Assembly: GCF_044324875.1 (NCBI RefSeq)
Contig: NZ_CP172185.1
DNA length: 64,000 bases
Strand: one strand, 5' to 3'
DNA from: Escherichia coli
GTDB taxonomy: Bacteria; Pseudomonadota; Gammaproteobacteria; Enterobacterales; Enterobacteriaceae
Shown: piece by piece, positions 30,644 through 30,720 of the stretch
How positions within the stretch are numbered: position 1 is the stretch's first letter
Layout of the letters: every line of letters begins with the position of its first letter
Notes under the pieces: generated by a model
Seen by the model: the letters and a program-made list of their open reading frames with translations, nothing else
Databases searched by the model: none
What the model was told of the DNA's origin: nothing
Translations under genes and position numbers: made by a program

Positions 30644-30720
30644 CGCGGGGTGGAGCAGCCTGGTAGCTCGTCGGGCTCATAACCCGAAGGTCGTCGGTTC
30701 AAATCCGGCCCCCGCAACCA
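30644..30720 (+). tRNA. metY: Initiator tRNA-fMet (anticodon CAT)
   Basis: CGCGGGGTGGAGCAGCCTGGTAGCTCGTCGGGCTCATAACCCGAAGGTCGTCGGTTCAAATCCGGCCCCCGCAACCA; position 46 is G (fMet1-type). Confidence 0.95.

Follow-up and report, generated by a model that had tools for sequence, protein, structure and literature searches.

Does a G at position 46 of the initiator tRNA encoded by metY indicate which lineage an E. coli chromosome belongs to, or only which lineage it does not belong to? K strains have m7G46 in tRNA-fMet1 and A46 in tRNA-fMet2, whereas in B all four initiator genes encode tRNA-fMet1 (PMC3017606); the K-12/B difference in metY is attributed to Mandal & RajBhandary (J Bacteriol 1992), as cited in PMC3017606. 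The initiator pool of K strains consists of roughly 75% G46 and 25% A46 molecules (PMC8887418), and a recent preprint describes G46 in metY of B, C, W, Crooks, and Nissle 1917 and A46 in K-12 only (bioRxiv 10.64898/2026.04.16.719103). The same preprint also reports another single-copy initiator-tRNA polymorphism, a D-loop A17 variant in metW of Nissle 1917 (bioRxiv 10.64898/2026.04.16.719103). We addressed this question for a 64,000-nt stretch of E. coli DNA (hereafter, the window), in which an initial annotation had read a G at position 46 of metY and had proposed this base as a strain marker.

At exactly 30644–30720 on the plus strand, ARAGORN identified a 77-nt gene for tRNA-Met (anticodon CAT, at position 35 of the tRNA), and the Rfam tRNA model RF00005 matched the same gene with 61.4 bits (E = 1e-13); 30644–30720 is a well-formed tRNA gene and no chance pattern. 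The gene encodes its own CCA end and presents all of the bacterial initiator tRNA features that were considered, including (i) the anticodon CAU; (ii) a C1xA72 mismatch in the acceptor stem, flagged as a non-standard pair by covariance-model alignment; (iii) three consecutive G:C pairs in the anticodon stem (29–31:39–41), with GGG and CCC on the two sides of a CUCAUAA loop; and (iv) an A11:U24 pair in the D stem, read off the sequence as G10-A11-G12-C13 facing G22-C23-U24-C25. In the covariance-model alignment, the variable loop reads A44 G45 G46 u47 C48, and the string CCCGAAGGTCGTCGG, which the initial annotation had quoted for this loop, is found in the gene. Because the tRNA has an extra D-loop position (17a), G46 is linear nucleotide 47 of metY, which corresponds to window base 30690. 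This base is a G, so both the reading of G46 and the coordinates given for it were right, and the A46 that defines tRNA-fMet2 is absent; with G46 and a sequence otherwise equal to that of metZWV, the gene is of the fMet1 type.

The surroundings of this tRNA gene identify it as metY. The divergent upstream neighbor is argG (28953–30296, minus strand, 447 aa), recognized from the list of open reading frames and from synteny with annotated genomes. Downstream of the tRNA gene are the rimP leader (RF01770; 30809–30909, plus strand), which scored 102 bits where the gathering threshold is 47 (E = 2.5e-17), and the rimP coding region (30927–31379, plus strand), which by translation encodes 150 aa from a TTG start and is colinear with the annotated rimP of K-12, REL606, VCSW7, and 042. 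Among the protein genes of the operon that metY heads, rimP comes first and is followed by nusA and infB; the gene order around metY as a whole matches that annotated in the same four strains. Since argG is found upstream, and the rimP leader and rimP-nusA-infB downstream, of a single initiator tRNA gene, this locus is metY and not metZWV. In K-12, metZWV is a three-gene cluster between mltA and amiC, and the location is the only difference between those copies and the single copy found in the window in front of rimP-nusA-infB.

A consensus scan found two putative promoters upstream of the tRNA gene on the plus strand, whose function can be proposed from their match to consensus: a sigma-70-like site (30522–30551; TTGACA-18-TATAAT) matching at 12/12 positions and a proximal promoter-like site (30599–30628; TTTGCA-18-TAGAAT) matching at 9/12 positions. 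The proximal site ends 16 nt 5′ of the tRNA and has the same sequence in K-12. A scan for terminator-like structures found two putative hairpins within the rimP leader (30842–30865 and 30890–30902). As putative elements, the promoter-like sites and the hairpins would fit the layout expected of the metY operon, in which upstream sigma-70 promoters would drive transcription that reads through into rimP. Three SNPs distinguish the window from K-12 upstream of metY, at 30490, 30505, and 30537 (C, G, and A in the window; T, A, and G in K-12); the SNP at 30537 (A in the window, G in K-12) lies between the two hexamers of the perfect-consensus site (TTGACA and TATAAT), within their 18-nt spacer.

The initial annotation had stated that K-12 metY encodes A46 and that E. 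coli B metY encodes the fMet1 sequence, and had named alignment to K-12 metY, to metZWV, and to B metY as the check, with a G in K-12 metY as the outcome that would speak against it. In these alignments, the tRNA in the window is identical to MG1655 metZ, metW, and metV (77/77) and differs from MG1655 metY (NC_000913, 3318213–3318289) at a single site, position 46, with G in the window and A in K-12; this is the sole variable column among the K-12 copies and the window (30690, plus strand). From the start of the tRNA to the start of rimP, position 46 is also the only difference between the window and K-12. K-12 metY, encoding tRNA-fMet2, shares with the window its locus, its neighbors, its promoter-like sites, and the sequence that runs from the tRNA across the leader and into rimP, and differs in the tRNA itself by A46 vs. 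G46. The metY of REL606, an E. coli B strain (NC_012967, 3253447–3253523), carries G46 and matches the tRNA in the window at 77/77 positions, in agreement with the initial annotation. More generally, tRNA-fMet1, as encoded by metZ, metW, and metV in K-12 and by metY in B, has in common with metY in the window G46, the CAU anticodon, C1xA72, the three G:C pairs, and the CCA end.

How common each allele is in E. coli was assessed by an allele census over 5,426 complete genomes. The megablast search used requires an exact 28-base word, and a 55-mer with the SNP at its center therefore matches only targets that carry the allele of the query; the census consequently counts gene copies through the word size rather than through an alignment of metY in each genome, with totals that agree within one copy. 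The 55-mer with A46 matched in 365 of the 5,426 genomes, at one place in each, and the carriers among the records listed are overwhelmingly K-12 laboratory derivatives (MG1655, MC4100, DH10B, HB101, C600, XL1-Blue, and EMG2). The 55-mer with G46 matched at 20,811 places in 5,425 genomes; A46 copies are absent in 5,060 of these 5,425 matching genomes. Together, the two alleles account for 21,176 copies (20,811 + 365), as compared to 21,177 initiator-gene places found with a 301-bp query for the locus, which leaves at most one copy in the E. coli census that could carry C or T at position 46. Essentially all initiator-gene copies in E. coli carry either G or A at this position. The metY locus itself was found with the 301-bp query in 5,420 genomes; with A46 in 365 genomes, metY carries G46 in about 93% of the complete genomes.

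This census changes what the site can say about a strain. As a marker, G46 does exclude K-12, and this part of the proposal in the initial annotation stood; the site gives no positive strain information, since G46 is present in about 93% of complete genomes. G46 excludes K-12 and nothing more, and it provides no link to E. coli B. The idea that G46 marks the B lineage, or some other particular lineage, and so ties the window to E. coli B draws on the identity of REL606 metY with the tRNA in the window and on a literature that sets B against K-12, but the near-universality of G46 in the allele census refutes a B affinity of the window, and all outgroup copies among the matches listed (see below) carry the same base. 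The flanking DNA points the same way. Although the tRNA is the same, the flanks of metY differ between B strains and the window; for example, REL606 has a C>T SNP at +91, 14 nt past the 3′ end of the tRNA (window 30735), that is absent in both the window and K-12. Identity to the window is 98.5% for K-12, no more than 98.3% for REL606 (over 25 kb), and 98.5% for 042, and the differences are scattered over the entire window. The closest relative found is a draft genome, GCA_040713135.1, and a two-gene insertion is common to the window and 042. A B-lineage or other lineage-specific marker is accordingly an extremely improbable explanation of G46 in the window. The C>T SNP at +91 of REL606 would be a more specific marker on the B side than G46.

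The draft GCA_040713135.1 was found through an exact-protein lookup with YhbX; its contig JALMOL010000001.1 matches window positions 17320–38945 at 99.991% identity over 21.6 kb, with two mismatches, and it also carries G46. Among the 5,426 complete RefSeq E. coli genomes, none was closer than 99.0–99.4% in any third of the window (1–19000, 20000–44000, and 46000–64000), and the best-matching complete strains differ between the thirds. The lineage of the window is real and is without a complete genome among the 5,426. A search with window positions 1–19000 gave a median of 38 matching places per genome, showing that this part contains a dispersed short repeat, which is probably REP-like.

Several other differences in gene content were observed along the window. 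A two-gene insertion between mtr and yhbW (44357–45804) is absent from K-12, REL606, and VCSW7, is 100% identical to the corresponding DNA in E. coli 042, and occurs in its entirety in just 183 of the 5,426 complete genomes. It contains a gene for a hypothetical protein of 176 aa (44416–44946, minus strand) and a gene for an L,D-transpeptidase-family protein of 239 aa (45104–45823, plus strand), whose 3′ end overlaps yhbW. A close kinship with 042, as this 1.45-kb insertion with its 100% match might suggest, was rejected because the rest of the window is just 98.5% identical to that strain. The yraHIJK fimbrial operon, which in K-12 and REL606 occupies approximately 5.4 kb between agaI and rsmI, is missing at 57785–57885, where the window has approximately 100 bp instead, as do VCSW7 and 042. 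A segment of approximately 150 bp between obgE (cgtA) and dacB (18355–18505) is present in the window and K-12 and was not found in VCSW7 or in two draft assemblies.

If G46 is the common allele, it remains to ask which of the two bases is derived. The 23.9-kb region around metY in K-12 served as the reference for a ranking of all genomes. Directly after the K-12 block, this ranking contained natural isolates with larger genomes and just 2–7 mismatches. Among these isolates, FDN-9 is separated from K-12 by 2 sites in the 23.9 kb, S1-IVC-02-A by 3, and SW070917 by 5; position 46 is among the differences each time, and all three carry G. That isolates this close to K-12 have G46 indicates that A46 arose recently, through a G>A change on a haplotype otherwise widespread among natural isolates. 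We also considered the possibility that A46 occurs naturally outside K-12, as there are A46 carriers with "natural-source" records; the four that were compared (chicken meat, duck, human gut, and oil palm) all turned out to have the K-12 haplotype, with 0, 3, 0, and 2 sites, respectively, separating them from MG1655 in 30 kb. REL606, which also belongs to phylogroup A, differs from MG1655 at 248 sites in 45 kb.

Outgroups were scanned with exact 26-mers, a design that covers initiator tRNAs sharing this anticodon and T arm. When 100,044 bacterial and archaeal species were scanned, each through a single representative, the 26-mer with A46, CGGGCTCATAACCCGAAGATCGTCGG, matched exactly in none. 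Control 26-mers carrying one of the other three bases (C, G, or T) at this position matched at least 120 loci, and 181 of the 181 copies among the matches listed have G, with no C or T at this position in any of them. Forty-five of the G46 copies among the matches listed are located directly upstream of a rimP homologue, and the RimP identity at these 45 loci ranges from 96% (Citrobacter) down to 41% (Halieaceae). These gammaproteobacterial metY orthologues, in taxa that range from Citrobacter, Enterobacter, and Photorhabdus to Vibrio, Shewanella, Aeromonas, Pseudomonas, and Halieaceae, have the arrangement of tRNA followed by rimP and the G46 26-mer in common with the window; they differ from it in spacer length and leader sequence, and the comparison covers the 26-nt core and the linkage to rimP. 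The presence of G46 in the rimP-linked initiator gene of the outgroups indicates that G46 is ancestral across the Gammaproteobacteria.

This polarity also bears on the idea that G46 in the window is secondary, i.e., that an A46 ancestor was turned back to G through gene conversion from metZWV. Conversion is mechanistically possible among four near-identical copies, and no result points to it; the 45 rimP-linked G46 loci among the outgroup matches listed, the confinement of A46 to the K-12 haplotype, and the presence of G46 in the nearest natural relatives of K-12 all argue against such a history, which we regard as having almost no chance of being correct. With G46 in the outgroups, A46 in K-12 only, and G46 in near relatives of K-12, the most parsimonious explanation is that G changed to A once, on the branch leading to K-12. 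That the G at 30690 is a sequencing or assembly artefact, e.g., due to reads from metZWV collapsed onto metY in a four-copy repeat of the kind that may be mis-assembled, is likewise exceedingly unlikely, as an independent draft of the same lineage with two mismatches in 21.6 kb agrees on G46, the 301-bp stretch together with its unique flanks has an exact match in approximately two thirds of the complete genomes in an evenly spaced sample, and G is the expected base.

The metY gene in the window is thus almost certainly the ordinary, ancestral G46 allele, which encodes tRNA-fMet1 and heads the metY-rimP-nusA-infB operon, with A46 of K-12 being a private and recent G-to-A transition on the K-12 branch. 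Based on established tRNA biology and the papers cited here, G46 would be methylated to m7G46 by TrmB, whose gene is located outside the window, and m7G46 would join the C13-G22 pair in the tRNA core, forming a C13-G22-m7G46 tertiary interaction. The genes metZWV lie outside the window and are canonical in essentially all E. coli; if those of this strain are canonical as well, the strain would have one initiator species rather than the 75%/25% mix of K-12, and metY would contribute about a quarter of the initiator gene dosage. In a recent study of strains sustained on either metY(G46) or metY(A46), the G46 form was reportedly somewhat more stable and fitter. In K-12, the A at position 46 is not convertible to m7G, resulting in a minor second initiator species (PMC8887418 and PMC3017606).

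The difference in metY between K-12 and B has been known since 1992 and was extended to six strains in the 2026 preprint. The increment provided here is one of scale and polarity: the census covered 5,426 genomes, isolates very close to K-12 were seen to carry G46, and the A46 26-mer did not occur in the 100,044 species representatives. Together, these three lines of evidence indicate that A46 is a lineage-private mutation and not a maintained isoform. Very probably, then, the two initiator tRNA species that textbooks describe for E. coli reflect a private and very recent G>A mutation of K-12 that no other complete E. coli genome carries, not even the natural isolates with 2–5 differences from K-12 around metY, and that is likewise missing from the 100,044 species representatives.

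For the window itself, this has little import; the site is a correct but low-information "not K-12" marker. The one point of use concerns the reference strain, as K-12 is the outlier at this position, and typing or annotation that takes A46 of K-12 metY to be normal for E. coli reverses the polarity. If A46 is indeed private to K-12, tRNA-fMet2, which is much used in structural work and in vitro translation, would not be a naturally maintained isoform, and suggestions that a selective advantage keeps tRNA-fMet2 would be contradicted; work with tRNA-fMet2 as "the" E. coli initiator would then amount to the use of a lineage-private variant.
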